A stretch of 64,000 nt of DNA from a virus. The DNA lies in the IMG/VR virus record IMGVR_UViG_3300049847_000663, positions 1-64,000 of that record, one strand, 5' to 3'. How positions within the stretch are numbered: position 1 is the first letter of the stretch; each line of letters begins with the position of its first letter. The translations under genes and the position numbers were made by a program. The notes beneath the pieces are model-generated. The model did not search any database. It saw nothing but the letters and a program-made list of their open reading frames with translations, and had not been told where the DNA came from. Shown here in pieces: positions 2,177 through 13,987 of the stretch.

Positions 2177-3790
2177 CTATAATTTAATAATTTTATTTGT
2201 TACCCAAGTAGGCTGAATATTGTTATGAGCAGCTCCGCCACCGGTATTTTGGTTAGTTGCTGTTGTATTTTGAATAGCGACTGTATCAGTAACAACGTTT
2301 CCGTTAGTATTAGATACAGATCCTCGATTTATAACAGTACCGGCTCCACCACCAAACGCACTTATGAAATTATGATCATGCGCATTTTGTATATGAGTGT
2401 GTGAAGGCATTTCAGTTGTACTTAAAGTAATTCCTTCAAATCCACCAGTTGCTCCAAGTCCACCATTTATAAAAGTTCCTAGACGGTTAGCCGAAGTTCC
2501 GCCCATGTTATCTCGACCGGCTGCTACTCTACCTCTAAGATCGGGAGTAGGTAATCTTTTATTTGCAGCAAAGTCAGCAGTTGCACTAACACCCCGTGTA
2601 GTAGCAACACCAGAACTATCTTGAATAGGAAGAATTGTATTTGAATAAGAATTCCAAAATAAAGTATAGAGAGTAGCAGTATCGGTATTTGCTCTTTCAG
2701 TTGCGCCAGATGCAGCTGAACCTATAGTATTACCGCTTGCTAAAATATATCCAGTAGGAGAAGTAGTGCCTAAATAATCAAACATACTTCCTGTAGGGGT
2801 AGCGTTAGCTGAAGCTGCCCAAATTAAACCTGTAGCTTGAGTATTATCAGCAGTTAAAACGTCACCGTTTGATCCAACCCCGATACGAGTAACTGTATCA
2901 GATGCAGTTGCTACATAAAGATCACCTTTTGTAGTTAAAACTGATCTAGTTTGTTTACTATCAATTTGTGGTTGAATTGAGCCAGTCACGCCATTCACAT
3001 ATCCGATTTCTGTAGCTGTGGTTGTAGCTGGTGAAATTACACCAGAACCGTCACTTATTAAAGCTCGACTTGCTGTAGTAGCTGCTAATTTATTTAAAGA
3101 AATTGATGCACCAGATTTAATATCAGCATTTTCAATGTTTGTAATAGTATTGGAATCAGCATCAATTGTTTTATTTGTTAACGTTTGTGTATCACTGATA
3201 CCAACCGCAGAACTTAAAATTCCGGTTAATTGACCAAGTTCAGTGGACGTAACCGCTGAAGCACTTAAAACACCAGAACCATCCGATTGAATCGCTTTAT
3301 TTGATGTTAAACTGGCAAGTTTATTTAGAGAAATAGCTGCGCCGGATTTAATATCTGCGTTTTCGATATTAGTAATTGTATTTGAATCCGCGTCTATAGT
3401 TTTATTTGTTAGAGTTTGAGCGTCACTTGTTCCAACCACGGTACCAGTAGGAACTGTATTTGTTGAAATAGCTTGACCAGAACCATCACGAACTATGAAC
3501 TTATTAGCATCAACTAAAACCGTTTTTAAAGAACTAAGGGCTAAATCCTGAATGGTATTATTATCACCGTCGATTGTTTTATTTGTTAATGTTTGAGAAA
3601 AATCTTTTTCAACTAAAGTTCCTGATGTATCAGGAAGATCAAGGGTTCTATTTACTGTCTGTTTAGAAACTAAAGTGGTACCGGTACCGCTAGATGCGGT
3701 ATTATCGACAGTTAAGCCTAATTCTTTAGTTCGGTCAGTTTCGTTCTGGACAAAAAGACCTTTAACAAACTTAGGAAATGATAAAGCCAT
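2177..3790 (-). CDS. Tail fibre protein with collar domain
   Basis: Collar-like PTGSMFDYLGTTSPTGYILASG and PDLRGRVAAG; HxH metal motifs (SHTH, AHDH); internal QTLTNKTID repeats. Confidence 0.85.
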   Translation of the reverse strand: MALSFPKFVKGLFVQNETDRTKELGLTVDNTASSGTGTTLVSKQTVNRTLDLPDTSGTLVEKDFSQTLTNKTIDGDNNTIQDLALSSLKTVLVDANKFIVRDGSGQAISTNTVPTGTVVGTSDAQTLTNKTIDADSNTITNIENADIKSGAAISLNKLASLTSNKAIQSDGSGVLSASAVTSTELGQLTGILSSAVGISDTQTLTNKTIDADSNTITNIENADIKSGASISLNKLAATTASRALISDGSGVISPATTTATEIGYVNGVTGSIQPQIDSKQTRSVLTTKGDLYVATASDTVTRIGVGSNGDVLTADNTQATGLIWAASANATPTGSMFDYLGTTSPTGYILASGNTIGSAASGATERANTDTATLYTLFWNSYSNTILPIQDSSGVATTRGVSATADFAANKRLPTPDLRGRVAAGRDNMGGTSANRLGTFINGGLGATGGFEGITLSTTEMPSHTHIQNAHDHNFISAFGGGAGTVINRGSVSNTNGNVVTDTVAIQNTTATNQNTGGGAAHNNIQPTWVTNKIIKL

Positions 3791-3803
3791 TTAATGTATC
3801 CTT

Positions 3804-4286
3804 TTACTGCAAAATCGATTTAGCGTAAAATGTCATAAGTCCACTATAATTAACTGACCCAATATCGTTCGATGTATATAATATCTGCCCAGAATTAGTT
3901 ATATCTAGATTCACACCCGAATAACCGTTTACATTACATTGCGTCATTGTCCAAGGATTAGATGCGTTACTATCGTAAAGAACAGTCAATGTTCCACTTT
4001 CAGAAAAACCTGAAGGATTTGAATCACTTATGCGATAAATATTATAATTAATTATAGAAGATCTAACAGCTCCGCCATCGAAAATAAGACCAGTAACATC
4101 AGAAGGTGTAGTTTGATTATTAGCTACAGTAAATGAAGTTGGGAGAATGTCTGCAGAACCTACTATACTATCTAGAACATCAGTTACTGCTGACATCCAG
4201 TCAGTAGTGTCACCTCCCCAACCGGGTGGATCTCCAGCGTCGGGGATTTCATATGGTGTATTATTAATAATAAGAGTGCGAGACAT
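3804..4286 (-). CDS. Putative virion protein (first gene of the tail operon)
   Basis: 160 aa; GAGG SD; preceded by the late motif at 4321-4333. Confidence 0.6.
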   Translation of the reverse strand: MSRTLIINNTPYEIPDAGDPPGWGGDTTDWMSAVTDVLDSIVGSADILPTSFTVANNQTTPSDVTGLIFDGGAVRSSIINYNIYRISDSNPSGFSESGTLTVLYDSNASNPWTMTQCNVNGYSGVNLDITNSGQILYTSNDIGSVNYSGLMTFYAKSILQ

Positions 4287-9300: not shown

Positions 9301-9891
9301 CTTTTATCTCAAAAGAGGAATTATGAGCTTCTTTTCATTAAATGAATTAAAAACAATCCAAGTAATACTAGATTCTAGAAGTAAAGCTGGAGACGGTACG
9401 GATGAAAATCCATACAGAAGTATTGTTAATGTATTTACCACTGGTGGTGAATTGATTGCAACAAATGATCATTTTGTTAATAACATGATAAATGATTATT
9501 ACAGAAATCTTCACAAACAGAGAAATAAAAAGATTAGCGATGAGCCTAAAGAATTCTCACTTGACGAAATTCACATGCAGATAGATAATAAGGCTTTAAG
9601 TATTACTATGCATTTAGATCAATGGAATAAAATCAAACTTTATGTTGAAAGTTTAGAAAAACAATTGAAAGAAAAAGAATAGTGAGTTTAACGCAATTAA
9701 ACCCGCAAATACCATTAATTACACCAAAAGGTGGAGCACAAGCAGTAGCCATTATTGATTATTCAGAAGAGCACGATTTAAAATGGGTTTGTATTTTAGA
9801 TGAAAATGGTGAAGTTTGGACGTTTAAGAATAGTGATGTTAGAGGGTATCCGAATGAGACAATGGGAAGAAAGAAGTTTAAAATTAAGTAA
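6308..9891 (+). other. Array of about 15 small overlapping hypothetical CDS (e.g. 6308-6583 secreted Cys protein, 7331-7810, 8208-8570, 8770-9141, 9138-9326 Zn ribbon, 9323-9682, 9682-9891)
   Basis: Same-strand ORFs with ATGA/TAATG overlaps and SD motifs; no recognisable catalytic motifs. Confidence 0.65.
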
Positions 9892-11200
9892 CTTTCCATT
9901 CATAAACATTAGAACCGGGAATTGGTATCTTTTTGTATCCAGCATCTAGCATATTTCGAGTTTCACTCTTTAAAGAACTATACTGCTCTCCCAATAACTT
10001 AAATAATCTTTTCTTTTGCGCTCGAGTTCTACTAATCACAATATCGTCTTTTTTGTAAACATAGCTAGGTTGACTTGATCTTAAAAATGTAAAGCCTAGT
10101 TTTTCATAAACTTTACCACCAGTTGAAAATCCTATAGTTGCATAAGTTAAAACATTAATTGGGTTTTTATCTTTTATAAAAAACTTAAACAAACGACTAG
10201 CTCCACCATGAACGAATGTGTTCTTTTTTGTACAAAGTCTTAGGATTTCCCATTGATAATTCTTATTAAAGCGCGGCTTTCCCATAGTCAATATACAAAC
10301 GAGTTCTTTATTATAAAACAAACCGTAAGACCAACTAGAAGCTATATACTTTTGTTTGTGGTTTAAATCCAAAAATTCCCGCTCTTCATTAACAAAAACT
10401 TCTTGAATTAAGCAATCACTAGCTCTAATTTTTTGAGGTGAATTGTCTATATAAGACCATAGATAGTTTTTATGCGGTCGATTTTTTAATATATTTCGCC
10501 TAATTGAAGTTTTATCAAAACCATGTTTAACAGCTTCAGATCCCGATTTAAACTCCAAGGCTTCTCCGGTCACTACATGTACACCTCTAACAGGCTTATC
10601 TTTTGTTTGGCGATTTTTATAGGATAAGTCTAGTTCTTCTTTAGTAAGAGTTTTTTTATTAGGACTTTTGTATGTAAGTTGGTGTTTTTTTTGGCAGTCT
10701 CTACAGATTCGCATAAGCCTATCCCAAGACTGACTGGATTTATTATACTCAGAAAGCAATTTTAGTTCTTCACATTTCGGACATTTTTTATGTGGGATAT
10801 TGTCAACTAAAACATGTTTATTCTTATTACTCGGCTCTCTTTTTTCATAATTCTTAGCTTTATTTGATATTTTTTGTCTAGTTTCTAAACTTTTAACAAA
10901 GGAACCGTCAACAATATTAGTTGTATTATAACCATTCGGGGCTATTGAGTTATATTGTTTAATATAGAATTCTTCTTTTTCCTTAAGAAGATTTACTGGA
11001 ATATTATCTTCAATAACAGAAGATTCAAAAGAATCCCAACCATAAGATTTAAGTGCATTGTAAAATGCTGGGCATTGATTGTAGGATTTGAAAGAATTAT
11101 TAGATTTACGCCATCTACGTTTAGGATCTTGAGTAGTTGAACCTACGTAGACTTTATTGTTAGTTTTATTCACATGTTTATATACGACGCCGGTTTTCAT
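9884..11200 (-). CDS. Free-standing GIY-YIG homing endonuclease-like protein with Zn ribbon, NUMOD-like segment and C-terminal GNAT-like domain
   Basis: GVVY...VYVGST; APNGYN; CPKC...CRDC; C-terminal EILRLC...GGASRLF...VYEKLGF. Confidence 0.75.
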   Translation of the reverse strand: MKTGVVYKHVNKTNNKVYVGSTTQDPKRRWRKSNNSFKSYNQCPAFYNALKSYGWDSFESSVIEDNIPVNLLKEKEEFYIKQYNSIAPNGYNTTNIVDGSFVKSLETRQKISNKAKNYEKREPSNKNKHVLVDNIPHKKCPKCEELKLLSEYNKSSQSWDRLMRICRDCQKKHQLTYKSPNKKTLTKEELDLSYKNRQTKDKPVRGVHVVTGEALEFKSGSEAVKHGFDKTSIRRNILKNRPHKNYLWSYIDNSPQKIRASDCLIQEVFVNEEREFLDLNHKQKYIASSWSYGLFYNKELVCILTMGKPRFNKNYQWEILRLCTKKNTFVHGGASRLFKFFIKDKNPINVLTYATIGFSTGGKVYEKLGFTFLRSSQPSYVYKKDDIVISRTRAQKKRLFKLLGEQYSSLKSETRNMLDAGYKKIPIPGSNVYEWKVT

Positions 11201-11313: not shown

Positions 11314-12383
11314 TTAATTAACAATATTCGATACAAGTACGTTCTGACCTGGAGCATAGCAAAAAAGTGCTTGATCACAGTAACAACGTAGCTCATATCC
11401 GTTAGCTTCTTCAAGTTCACGGAAGAATTTACCTTCAGCACCAGGACGGTTGAAAGTAATATCAGTAGAACCGATTCTCTCCATAGTCTCAAGGCTAAGA
11501 ATATAAGCATAACCTTGTTTGCAATAGATAGAAGAAACGATTTCAACTTTACCGTTTTGACCGTAGAATGTGATTTCTTGAGATCCGTTAGACAAACTGT
11601 TAACAGAATAAGATTGATCGTACATTCTAAGAGCAGCTTGTTCAGTCAAAAGATCAGACCAAGTGCGTGGGTTAACAAGAACCAATACTGCACTGTCAAG
11701 ACCTTTTTCTACTGCACGAGCGATTGCATCTTGCAATTTAGCAAAAGAAAGCGTAGAAGAACCGGCAGAGTAAACGTTTCCAGTCCACAAGCTATAGTTA
11801 GCTCCGTTAATTCCGAAAAGTGTACCAGTATTAGAAATGATTGAGTGAACACCCAAGAATTCCTGACCTTTAGCAGACTTGTAGAAAATAACGTCAGTAG
11901 CAACTGTACCAGCAGGAACTGCATCAACAGTGATGCTTTGATTCTGCATGCTTACAGCAGTTACTTGAGCAGACCCACGAAGAGTAGAAAGAGTAGCATC
12001 GTAGATTTCGATCTTCATTTGCTCTCCACCAACCCAGATTCCTGGAGCCCATTCGCTAGTAGTGATAGTGATTACACCTGCGCCCGGAAGAGCAGCAACT
12101 GTACCAATACCAACACCACCGTACATCATACCAACTTCAACGCGCTTAGTCATTGAACGTAGCATGTTACGTACTAGGAACTTAGTAGATTGTTCAAACG
12201 CAGCTTCGCTTGTCATAGAACGAGAAGCAGCAGCAACGCTGATACGTGAACGAAGAACCATTTCGCTTGAAACGATTGAAGCTTCTTTCAATTGACCAGC
12301 AACAGCTGCATCAAGAGCAAAAGCATCGCCAGAGTTACTGTAAGTAACACCGTGTTCCAATCCAAGTACTACCGGTTGTAGAT
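11314..12383 (-). CDS. Major capsid protein, exon 2
   Basis: Lies after the scaffold gene and before a strong terminator; joins exon 1 in frame as ...GQIGKQ-Y-LQPVVLGLEHGVTY; spliced product 404 aa. Confidence 0.85.
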
Positions 12384-12459
12384 CATTTGTTACGCGCTTT
12401 TTAAGCGGGATTGAGCATTTCTGTCAATCTCTGACGTTTTATATATAGCGTCAGGTCGG

Positions 12460-13105
12460 AAATTCATTGAATTTTATATAACATACTAGGATGAATGTGT
12501 TTTTTTATTAATTTTACAAATTTTTCTTTATTTTCTTTTTTTGTAAATTTAATACATGGATATTTTTTATGTTCTAAATACACTTTACATTCTAGATTAA
12601 AAGTTTTTCTTATGTGATCAGCCAATAAATTAACTTCATTTAAAGAAAAATCACCTATCGAAATTTTAAAAGCTTTAATCTTACCTTCAAAAGTTTCTTT
12701 ACAACCATCATCCATAAATAAAACAGCCAAAGAAATCTCATTAAAATGTTTTAATATCTCAGGAGTTATTGTTTTTTTACCATCAATATACATTCTTTTA
12801 TATAAAGCTGTAAATCGGTGGTCAGAACGTGTCCAGAATCTATAAAAATTACTTCTTTTACCCGATGGACTGGTCATTCCTTTAGCCAAACAACTTTTAC
12901 TAGCTACCGAAAACCACTTAGAAATAGAATATAATTTCCATTCTCCGTAATTTTTTTGTTTTTCGCAGTGTCCAAAAAGAATATGTTTCTTCTCTTTGCC
13001 CGCAAAACTAGCATCTCCCAAAAGTGTACCTATTAAAAATGCTCTTCTTTGTTTCCTAGTCATTCTCACTCCCATAAGCAGGGTTGATTTTATTTTTTCA
13101 ATGAA
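12460..13105 (-). mobile_element. 646-nt insertion inside the P7 3' strand of the intron, bounded by a 9-bp inverted repeat
   Basis: TTCATTGAA (13105-13097) pairs with TTCAATGAA (12471-12463); removing the insertion restores GAUAGUCCGAC. Confidence 0.8.
12464..13075 (-). CDS. LAGLIDADG homing endonuclease (double motif)
   Basis: FLIGTLLGDAS and LAVLFMDDG motifs; true start may be Met 13063 after GGGAG. Confidence 0.85.
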   Translation of the reverse strand: MGVRMTRKQRRAFLIGTLLGDASFAGKEKKHILFGHCEKQKNYGEWKLYSISKWFSVASKSCLAKGMTSPSGKRSNFYRFWTRSDHRFTALYKRMYIDGKKTITPEILKHFNEISLAVLFMDDGCKETFEGKIKAFKISIGDFSLNEVNLLADHIRKTFNLECKVYLEHKKYPCIKFTKKENKEKFVKLIKKHIHPSMLYKIQ

Positions 13106-13226
13106 ACTATCGCTTCTTCCATAAGGAAGTCAATTCATTTAGTCTCTCAGGCCGAAATTATCTTGCCCCTTGTTGTCCTAAAAGTCATTATACCACTTTA
13201 GGAGTTCCAAGTCAATTAGAATTGAT

Positions 13227-13769
13227 TTATAGGAATTTAAACTTATACCCTCTAGTGTGCGGTCTTTTTCCATTGCACACTAAAGATACCTTACTTTCTC
13301 GAAGACCCAAAGCTACACAAGCTTGTCGCATACTTTTGTATGTTTTTCCGTCGTTTAAACAGATAACTGGCCTAGAGTTAGCTTCGCTTATTTTTCTATT
13401 ATGTTCTGGACTATTTGGAGTAGTTCGTTTATAGTCATGATTCGGAAAAGGTTTTCCTTTTCTTTCTAATGACCATTTGGCTTTTTGCTCTTCTGAGTGT
13501 AAATTAGAATAACCGTTAATTGATTTTGGGCTAATATTCCAACCAGTTTTTCTAGTTTGATATTGTTCAATTAATAATTCTTCTAAAGTTACCGCTTCTT
13601 GAAGAGTTAAATCTTCTTGAGCTATTTCCATAAAATAGTCTTTTTTAACAAACTTTTTTCTATCTACGTGCTGTTGAAAGCGTTTAGCTAGAGGTTGACT
13701 TGTTAAACCGACATACATAATAAAATTATCAGATCTTCTTTTAATAAGATAAACTTTATAAGTTTTCAT
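13227..13769 (-). CDS. Intron-encoded GIY-YIG endonuclease with NUMOD DNA-binding repeats
   Basis: KVYLI...MYVGLT; HSEEQKAKWS; PVICLNDGKTYKSMRQAC...CNGK. Confidence 0.85.
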   Translation of the reverse strand: MKTYKVYLIKRRSDNFIMYVGLTSQPLAKRFQQHVDRKKFVKKDYFMEIAQEDLTLQEAVTLEELLIEQYQTRKTGWNISPKSINGYSNLHSEEQKAKWSLERKGKPFPNHDYKRTTPNSPEHNRKISEANSRPVICLNDGKTYKSMRQACVALGLRESKVSLVCNGKRPHTRGYKFKFL

Positions 13770-13842
13770 TTTTTATATCCTTCCCGAGCGGGATTGAATT
13801 TTTCCTAAAGGGATTTGAACCCTCAAACAGCATCTATAGTTT

Positions 13843-13987
13843 ACTGTTTACCGATTTGACCTTGTCCCTTAACAAAGGGAATTCTCTGCATGAGCTTCGT
13901 ATTTTCTGGTTCCAAATTTTCGATTTTGGAAGCATATACGTTTTTAAAGTTACCATCCAAGGTACTTAAATTATTCGTAGTAGCCAT
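13843..13987 (-). CDS. Major capsid protein, exon 1
   Basis: AAGGAG SD; MATTNNLSTLDGNFKNVYASKIENLEPENTKLMQRIPFVKGQGQIGKQ plus the first base of Tyr; missed by the ORF track. Confidence 0.85.

Follow-up and report, generated by a model that had tools for sequence, protein, structure and literature searches.

Can a group I intron still splice when an endonuclease gene sits inside the helix that forms its guanosine-binding pocket, and when its host is the only capsid gene of a phage? P7, as that helix is called, is better conserved than any other helix of group I introns and, to our knowledge, peripheral loops are regarded as the only places where endonuclease genes are tolerated. The locus that raises this question lies in a 64-kb stretch of DNA (hereafter the window, meaning the whole stretch analysed), which is the first part of the complete 79,820-bp genome, with direct terminal repeats, of an uncultivated freshwater phage. 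A sequence-only reading of the window had proposed that a LAGLIDADG cassette interrupts the 3' strand of P7 in an intron of the capsid gene, between the equivalents of U310 and C311, and had offered three ways out: precise excision of the cassette from the RNA, its extrusion as a helix with the help of a protein, or rescue in trans. Blast comparisons with deposited phages retrieved a single DNA match, of 116 nt in crAss-like phages, and, at the protein level, one distant capsid only.

The capsid gene starts at 13987 on the minus strand, breaks off after 48 codons and resumes in an ORF ending at 11314, whose product is 50-62% identical to those of the capsid genes of five IMG/VR contigs; a search of the whole genome indicated that the gene is single-copy. 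Uninterrupted capsid homologues carry the motif G..Y.QPV.LG.EHG across the position of the break. Joining U13843 to A12383 yields a protein of 404 aa containing ..IGKQYLQPVVLGLEHG.., which agrees with this motif and regains the conserved Tyr. As this is the sole junction that restores the homologue motif, the intron spans 13842-12384 (1459 nt), with splice sites U13843|A13842 (5') and G12384|A12383 (3'). The choice of splice sites was judged on P1 and P10 pairing, on the 3' motif of the intron family and on the conserved Tyr. Three other pairs of sites were rejected: U13850/G12384, which leads to a stop after 50 aa; A13849/G12384, in which the U.G pair is absent; and U13854/G12395, which would make the 3' tail of the family coding. 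The unspliced frame of exon 1 ends at a stop, U|AA, that spans the 5' splice site (13841-13843, minus strand), and its U is an exon base that, after splicing, becomes the first base of the conserved Tyr codon. A free-standing GIY-YIG ORF of 438 aa (9884-11200, minus strand), with a long C-terminal part lacking any family match, lies directly downstream of the capsid gene and is the third endonuclease gene within 4 kb.

The features of the intron and of its host gene are collected in Table 1. P1 comprises 7 bp between the exon (AAACAGU, 13849-13843) and the guide sequence (GCUGUUU, 13831-13825), with U13843.G13831 at the splice site, and P10 comprises 5 bp between the 3' exon (AUCUA, 12383-12379) and UAGAU (13836-13832). 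A GIY-YIG homing endonuclease ORF is located between P1 and P3, and is closed by the stem UAGGAA (13807-13802)/UUCCUA (13235-13230). The P3 helix covaries in relatives, for example as UCUUUUC/GAAAAGA in contig L008. The sequence-only reading had described a normal P9, P9.1 and terminal G after the insert; indeed, the order and motifs of P9 to P9.2, including the CAGAAAUG loop and the GUAACAAAUG tail, match those of uninterrupted relatives such as L014, L101 and L108. Between the guide sequence and the GIY-YIG cassette there is also a hairpin, GGG-UUCAAAU-CCC (13810-13822, minus strand), with a T-loop-like loop that could be a tertiary-contact module. An Rfam match of this hairpin plus P1 to tRNA-Sec (13883-13808, 18 bits, E 2.1) was dismissed as noise, as was a match to a snoRNA.

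Table 1. Positions in the window of the capsid exons, the group I intron and its elements.
Feature	Position	Strand	Basis
Capsid exon 1	13843..13987	-	ATG at 13987, U13843 last base; ORF list and join to exon 2
Capsid exon 2	11314..12383	-	PHROG major head protein, E 5e-17; homologues in L003-L007
Group I intron, 1459 nt	12384..13842	-	P1, P10, P3-P9.2 and omega-G read from sequence; member of intron family
Internal guide sequence	13825..13836	-	Read from sequence; reading frame agrees
GIY-YIG homing endonuclease ORF, 180 aa	13227..13769	-	Pfam GIY-YIG and I-HmuI NUMOD-like domain; PHROG homing endonuclease
P3 5' strand, UCAAUUC	13219..13225	-	Complement GAAUUGA at 13136-13130
P7 5' strand (R element), G(A)GACUA	13140..13146	-	Family R element TGAGAGACTA
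P8 hairpin, CUUCC-UUAU-GGAAG	13116..13129	-	In MFE and centroid folds; compensated variation in relatives
P7 3' strand, first half, UAGU	13106..13109	-	Partner ACUA at 13143-13140
Insert, 646 nt	12460..13105	-	Between AGU and CC of P7; sequence, Pfam, folding, comparison of four introns
P7 3' strand, second half, CC	12458..12459	-	Family rule GA -> CC
P9, CUGACG 12454-12449/CGUCAG 12436-12431	within 12395..12454	-	Read from sequence
P9.1, GAUUGA 12429-12424/UCAAUC 12414-12409	within 12395..12454	-	Read from sequence
P9.2, CGCUU 12407-12403/AAGCG 12399-12395	within 12395..12454	-	Read from sequence
Terminal G (omega-G), end of GUAACAAAUG	12384	-	Family 3' end motif; only site restoring the frame

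The R strand, which in longer context reads GAGAGACUA (13148-13140), contains the predicted guanosine-binding base, G13144, and a predicted bulge, A13145. On the opposite strand, C12459 is predicted to pair with G13144, forming the guanosine-binding pair, and C12458 with G13146; the G13144-C12459 pair is possible only across the 646-nt insert. The insert consists of a 5' arm (UUCAUUGAA, 13105-13097), a leader in which a hairpin holds the Shine-Dalgarno sequence, the LAGLIDADG ORF, a 3' arm (UUCAAUGAA, 12471-12463) that contains the stop codon of the ORF, and the linker UUU (12462-12460). The two arms, TTCATTGAA (13105-13097) and TTCAATGAA (12471-12463), are exact reverse complements over 9 bp, and the stem that they form is present in both the MFE and the centroid fold of a 711-nt stretch. 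The ORF (13075-12464, minus strand; 203 aa) takes up 612 of the 646 nt, and the Rfam scan retrieved no RNA family inside the insert even at E<=10. Thus the description of the cassette as a LAGLIDADG ORF with a 9-bp stem plus UUU, and with no ribozyme core of its own, was borne out, and all the coordinates of the sequence-only reading that we checked were right (AAGCGAUAGU ending at 13106, R strand GAGACUA at 13146-13140 and CCGACC from 12459).

The deduced protein matches Pfam LAGLIDADG_2 (PF03161; E 2.3e-32, 112.7 bits, cutoff 25) and, in profile comparisons, I-SceI (E 3e-18) and 6x1j (E 5e-22). Both LAGLIDADG motifs of the protein, LIGTLLGDASF and AVLFMDDGCKE, contain acidic residues and show conservation across 14 homologues. 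Both endonuclease ORFs of the intron are preceded by an A-rich stretch and by a Shine-Dalgarno hairpin of the CCC...GGGAG type (13780-13800 and 13078-13095, minus strand), and the LAGLIDADG gene of contig L038 has the same A-rich stretch and hairpin upstream. By analogy, these hairpins look like the translational sequestration described for I-TevI.

The assignment of the P7 bases rests on a large family of phage introns. A 16-mer spanning the end of P3, J3/4 and P4, TCTAATTGACTTGGAA, was found in more than 119 IMG/VR contigs among the matches listed, which contain compact group I cores with P3-P9, P9.1 and P9.2, many of them without an ORF. For the covariation analysis we used 101 distinct introns, namely 99 uninterrupted ones and the insert-bearing introns of L008 and L038; tallies were made by anchored patterns, and a MAFFT alignment, which misplaced the bases after the insert, was not used for those. 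The base after GACU in the R strand and the base before AGU in the opposite strand form a Watson-Crick pair in all 101 introns (A-U in 67, U-A in 20 and G-C in 14). Likewise, an R strand ACGACU is accompanied by AGU followed by CU (78 introns), and an R strand GAGACU by AGU followed by CC (21 introns), so that the dinucleotide after AGU obeys the R strand in 99 out of 99 uninterrupted introns; the exceptions are L008 and L038, both of which have an insert after AGU. By this rule, the C after AGU is the predicted partner of the G of GACU, that is, the guanosine-binding pair, and the next base is predicted to pair across the bulge. P3, P6, P7 and P8 also vary with compensation across the family. 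Since about 100 relatives contain an uninterrupted AGUC(C/U), the proposed position of the cassette, inside the 3' strand of P7, holds. The window, whose R type is GA, duly continues with CC once the insert ends, an agreement beyond chance. Other large inserts in the family occur in the P5/P6 region (40 of 101 introns) and in P8 (4 of 101), and the P7 site is used by the LAGLIDADG clade only.

This family, defined here from more than 119 IMG/VR contigs, is missed by the Rfam group I model. The window gave no hit to RF00028 at the gathering score, and neither did nine family loci; the uninterrupted intron of L107 scored 12 bits (E 1.8). The model is thus insensitive to the whole family, and the absence of an Rfam hit in the window carries no weight. 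Exact-match scans of IMG/VR with P8 plus the S element, and with the second half of P7 plus P9, retrieved no close relative of the window's intron. The insert-free relatives to which the sequence-only reading had looked for comparison therefore exist as 99 uninterrupted family introns elsewhere, but not, within IMG/VR, as an insert-free allele of this intron, and our comparison rests on family members in other genes and phages. Contig L107 (1100-1470) carries a related capsid gene with two neighbouring ORF-less group I introns, one ending near 1156 (partial Rfam hit, 18.9 bits) and the other a family intron at 1186-1470, in the site LG|LEHG.

When the LAGLIDADG protein and an alignment of its homologues were used as queries, the arrangement in the window proved not to be unique. 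Related genes, whose products are 47-65% identical to that of the window, occupy the same intron position in an L038-type phage, in L008 and in L163 (Table 2). The searches also retrieved ten further homologues (42-77% identity); the comparison of layouts covers the four complete introns. In all four, the closing stem starts with the base directly following AGU and pairs without a mismatch, although its sequence differs from one intron to the next. The stem is followed by a linker of 2-5 nt, by the remaining bases of P7 and by a separate P9, and it does not correspond to P1, P2, P5, P6, P8 or P9. Moreover, the dinucleotide after the insert is, in the four introns, the one predicted by their own R strand. 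All four are hosted by essential genes: the sole capsid gene, nrdD and the catalytic Cys codon of a reductase are among the insertion sites. The genome of the L038-type phage, of about 85 kb, was assembled from five or more IMG/VR samples, each time with identical junctions. LAGLIDADG relatives at a greater distance (<=35% identity) are found before P3 or between R and S, and not at the P7 site.

Table 2. Layout of the four complete introns with a LAGLIDADG gene after AGU of P7.
Source	Host gene	Closing stem	Linker	Resumes with	R strand
Window	Capsid	UUCAUUGAA, 9 bp	UUU	CCGACC	GAGACU
L038-type phage	Related capsid, seven codons downstream	CAACUUGAA, 9 bp	UUU	CUGAUC	ACGACU
L008	nrdD	CAUAUAUAUU, 10 bp	UUAAA	CUGAAC	ACGACU
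L163	Class II ribonucleotide reductase, catalytic Cys codon	UAUGUAUAAAU, 11 bp	GU	CCAAAC	GAGACU

Each of these relatives has further peculiarities. In L038 (3934-4599, reverse strand), the LAGLIDADG ORF has lost the stop in the closing stem and is 20 codons longer as a result, covering the linker as well as the second half of P7 and P9, a clear case of creep into the intron core. L163 (860-2360) contains an intron of about 1.5 kb at TNP|C|GEIPL of the class II ribonucleotide reductase. A small zinc-finger-like ORF extends across P6, R and P8 of this intron, the P9 loop holds another ORF, of 72 aa, and ATAGT is duplicated, with one copy on each side of the LAGLIDADG arm. In L008 (1-4624), exon 1 of nrdD has an intein-like insert bearing LAGLIDADG motifs, and the intron carries two endonuclease ORFs, the LAGLIDADG one at 2501-3136 and an HNH-like one at 3252-4097, the latter stopping some 12 nt short of exon 2. 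Another contig, L131, showed a 3' junction only (UUCAAUGA-UGU-CCGACC) and was not counted, because its primer-like ends and an internal repeat suggest a chimera. The same contig, with this possible chimerism in mind, displays at 932-1200 an apparent micro-exon of 12 bases, CTAGAACACGGT (LEHG), between two group I introns.

We favour, with reasonable confidence, a reading in which the ORF arm is extruded from the 3' strand of P7, P7 re-forms across a three-way junction and the intron splices. A long hairpin arm with the LAGLIDADG gene would branch off between UAGU and CC, and the 9-bp stem and the short U-rich linker would bring the two halves of the strand together. P7 would then form across the junction, with ACUA/UAGU on one side and G-C, the bulged A and G-C on the other, rebuilding the guanosine-binding site, and ordinary group I splicing through P1, P10 and omega-G would remove the intron from the capsid mRNA. 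As the same layout is present in three other phage introns, the RNA can probably fold and splice despite the insert. The 3' arm contains the stop codon of the ORF, whose translation should therefore melt the junction, and a ribosome doing so would render endonuclease translation and splicing mutually exclusive, in keeping with the description of I-TevI (PMC3073962). We infer a P7 formed across the junction in the RNA, a splicing intron and a stem that translation melts; among the RNA sequencing runs, only one holds a small share of the stretch. Of the three ways out originally offered, extrusion as a helix is the one that gained ground, with four introns having compensated stems of 9-11 bp, whereas nested excision found no support and neither did rescue in trans, since the genome has a single capsid gene.

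Secondary-structure energy does not favour the split P7: we calculated -3.1 kcal/mol for it versus -7.5 for a local helix, GAGACUA/UAGUUUC, plus a 6-bp stem (nearest-neighbour values, with the ORF interior unpaired), and the shortfall would have to be made up by tertiary contacts or by a protein. This points to an alternative in which the first bases of the insert replace the missing strand and the closing stem is a P9-type arm that holds the ORF, the downstream CC or CU being a leftover or contributing at most an outer pair. In the window, the guanosine site of this alternative would hold a G.U pair; for L038 and L008 it would be a G-C pair involving the insert's initial C. The local helix of the window had been singled out as the best local pairing by the sequence-only reading, and its nearest-neighbour energy is in fact the lowest in the window. 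Additionally, the first base of the insert is a pyrimidine in all four introns (U for the window and for L163, C for the two others), making an alternative pairing with the guanosine-binding G possible, and L163 recreates a complete AUAGUCC downstream of its ORF, so that alternative registers exist. However, a full local helix is available in the window only, with L163 mismatched at the second base and L038 and L008 gaining a single pair, which argues against local pairing as a conserved solution. The first insert base also covaries with its partner in the closing stem (U-A, C-G, C-G and U-A), and the fit of the post-insert dinucleotide to the R type has been maintained in the four introns even though their proteins have diverged by 35-53%. 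In the Tetrahymena ribozyme, G binding is weaker when the guanosine site is occupied by a G.U pair, which we also counted against the local helix. Altogether, we regard a locally completed P7 as rather unlikely.

Two further explanations depart more radically from a split helix. The cassette could be cut precisely from the RNA by a non-ribozyme or protein-dependent process, giving GAUAGUCCGAC before the ribozyme acts; exact removal of the 646 nt would restore a perfect S element and, if true, such excision would amount to a novel type of nested intron. Nevertheless, the insert is almost entirely ORF, its closing stem and short linker suit an extruded arm and are not known splice signals, and the linkers of the four introns (UUU, UUU, UUAAA and GU) vary in length and sequence and offer no common junction motif. 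With neither a ribozyme core, an RNA family match nor conserved junction signals, a nested intron appears highly improbable. The intron could instead be non-functional, in a phage that is defective, wrongly assembled or dependent on a helper for its capsid protein, as might be suspected from a metagenome-derived genome. Against this, the record is complete, with terminal repeats, the ORFs and all the intron helices are intact, and the genome lacks a second capsid gene. Besides, sequencing runs from other studies hold 61-78% of the sampled 31-letter words of the region, and the same layout appears in three other introns, one of them in the 85-kb phage recovered from at least five samples. This recurrence, together with the intact ORFs and helices and the independent runs, makes a misassembly or a defective phage improbable, and we give little credence to a non-splicing intron.

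The extruded arm also raises the question of how the cassette reached P7. The same endonuclease clade occupies the same intron position in four host-gene sites that share the sequence of the intron core only, which fits an enzyme that cuts the S-element DNA (..GCGAWAGT|CYGA..) of ORF-less family members. The cassette probably reached its site by homing, with the conserved S element of an ORF-less family intron as its DNA target, and it is plausible, on this circumstantial basis, that the LAGLIDADG endonuclease targets the conserved core of the intron, as the sequence-only reading had suggested. We did not find any uninterrupted S element in the window's genome or in the other three insert-bearing records, which is weakly consistent with such targeting. 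The identity among intron cores (67-78%) is too uniform to reveal independent movement of the endonuclease between introns. More tentatively, the enzyme might home into the S-element DNA of any family member and its protein might also act as a maturase that holds the split P7 together. If the core is indeed what it recognises, the endonuclease would not be tied to any one host gene and could move across the whole intron family as a parasite of introns, a point of relevance to the assembly of mobile introns.

Should splicing be confirmed, a group I catalytic core would tolerate a three-way junction from which about 650 nt branch out one base away from the guanosine-binding pair, providing a natural model for the long-range assembly of P7. 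The stop codon in the closing stem, and the ORF of a relative reading through P7, would then also suggest a direct switch between endonuclease translation and splicing. Mobile elements inside group I introns are known from twintrons and twin-ribozyme introns, such as DiGIR1/DiGIR2 of Didymium. The intron described here resembles them in that one mobile element resides inside another, and differs in that the inner element is an ORF hairpin without ribozyme or splice signals.

Phage endonuclease ORFs are found in peripheral loops, for instance P6a for I-TevI in T4 td and P8 for I-HmuI in the SPO1 DNA polymerase gene (Edgell, Chalamcharla and Belfort 2011, PMC3073962, Table 1), and reviews place intron endonuclease ORFs in the loops of P1, P2, P6, P8 and P9, with later overlap into the core (PMC3073962, Table 1; PMC3984707). 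As in phage introns of the td/I-TevI type, the host gene is essential, the ORF stands alone, has its own Shine-Dalgarno sequence in a hairpin and is looped out by a closing stem, and its end overlaps structural RNA, the read-through in L038 fitting the 'core creep' already described (PMC3073962). Unlike in those introns, whose ORF is in a peripheral terminal loop, the arm here emerges within P7 itself, a single base ahead of the C that belongs to the guanosine-binding pair. The protein is akin to LAGLIDADG enzymes of the I-SceI type (PF03161) in its sequence family, in its two motifs with conserved acidic residues and in its residence within a group I intron; it differs from I-SceI in being phage-borne, in its size of about 200 aa and in its position in the intron. 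The entry of endonuclease genes into introns at sites recognised by the enzyme has been described (Loizos, Tillier and Belfort 1994; Bonocora and Shub 2009; as summarised in PMC3073962). Likewise, the gene would here have entered an ORF-less intron by cutting intron DNA, although the presumed target, deduced from four contexts, is the S element, the most conserved element of the core. A full-text literature search, which is not proof of absence, retrieved no report of an ORF inside P7. In all, the intron and its I-SceI-like endonuclease are both of standard types, and it is the insertion site, for which we found no precedent in the literature and which recurs in four introns, that sets this arrangement apart from the known systems.
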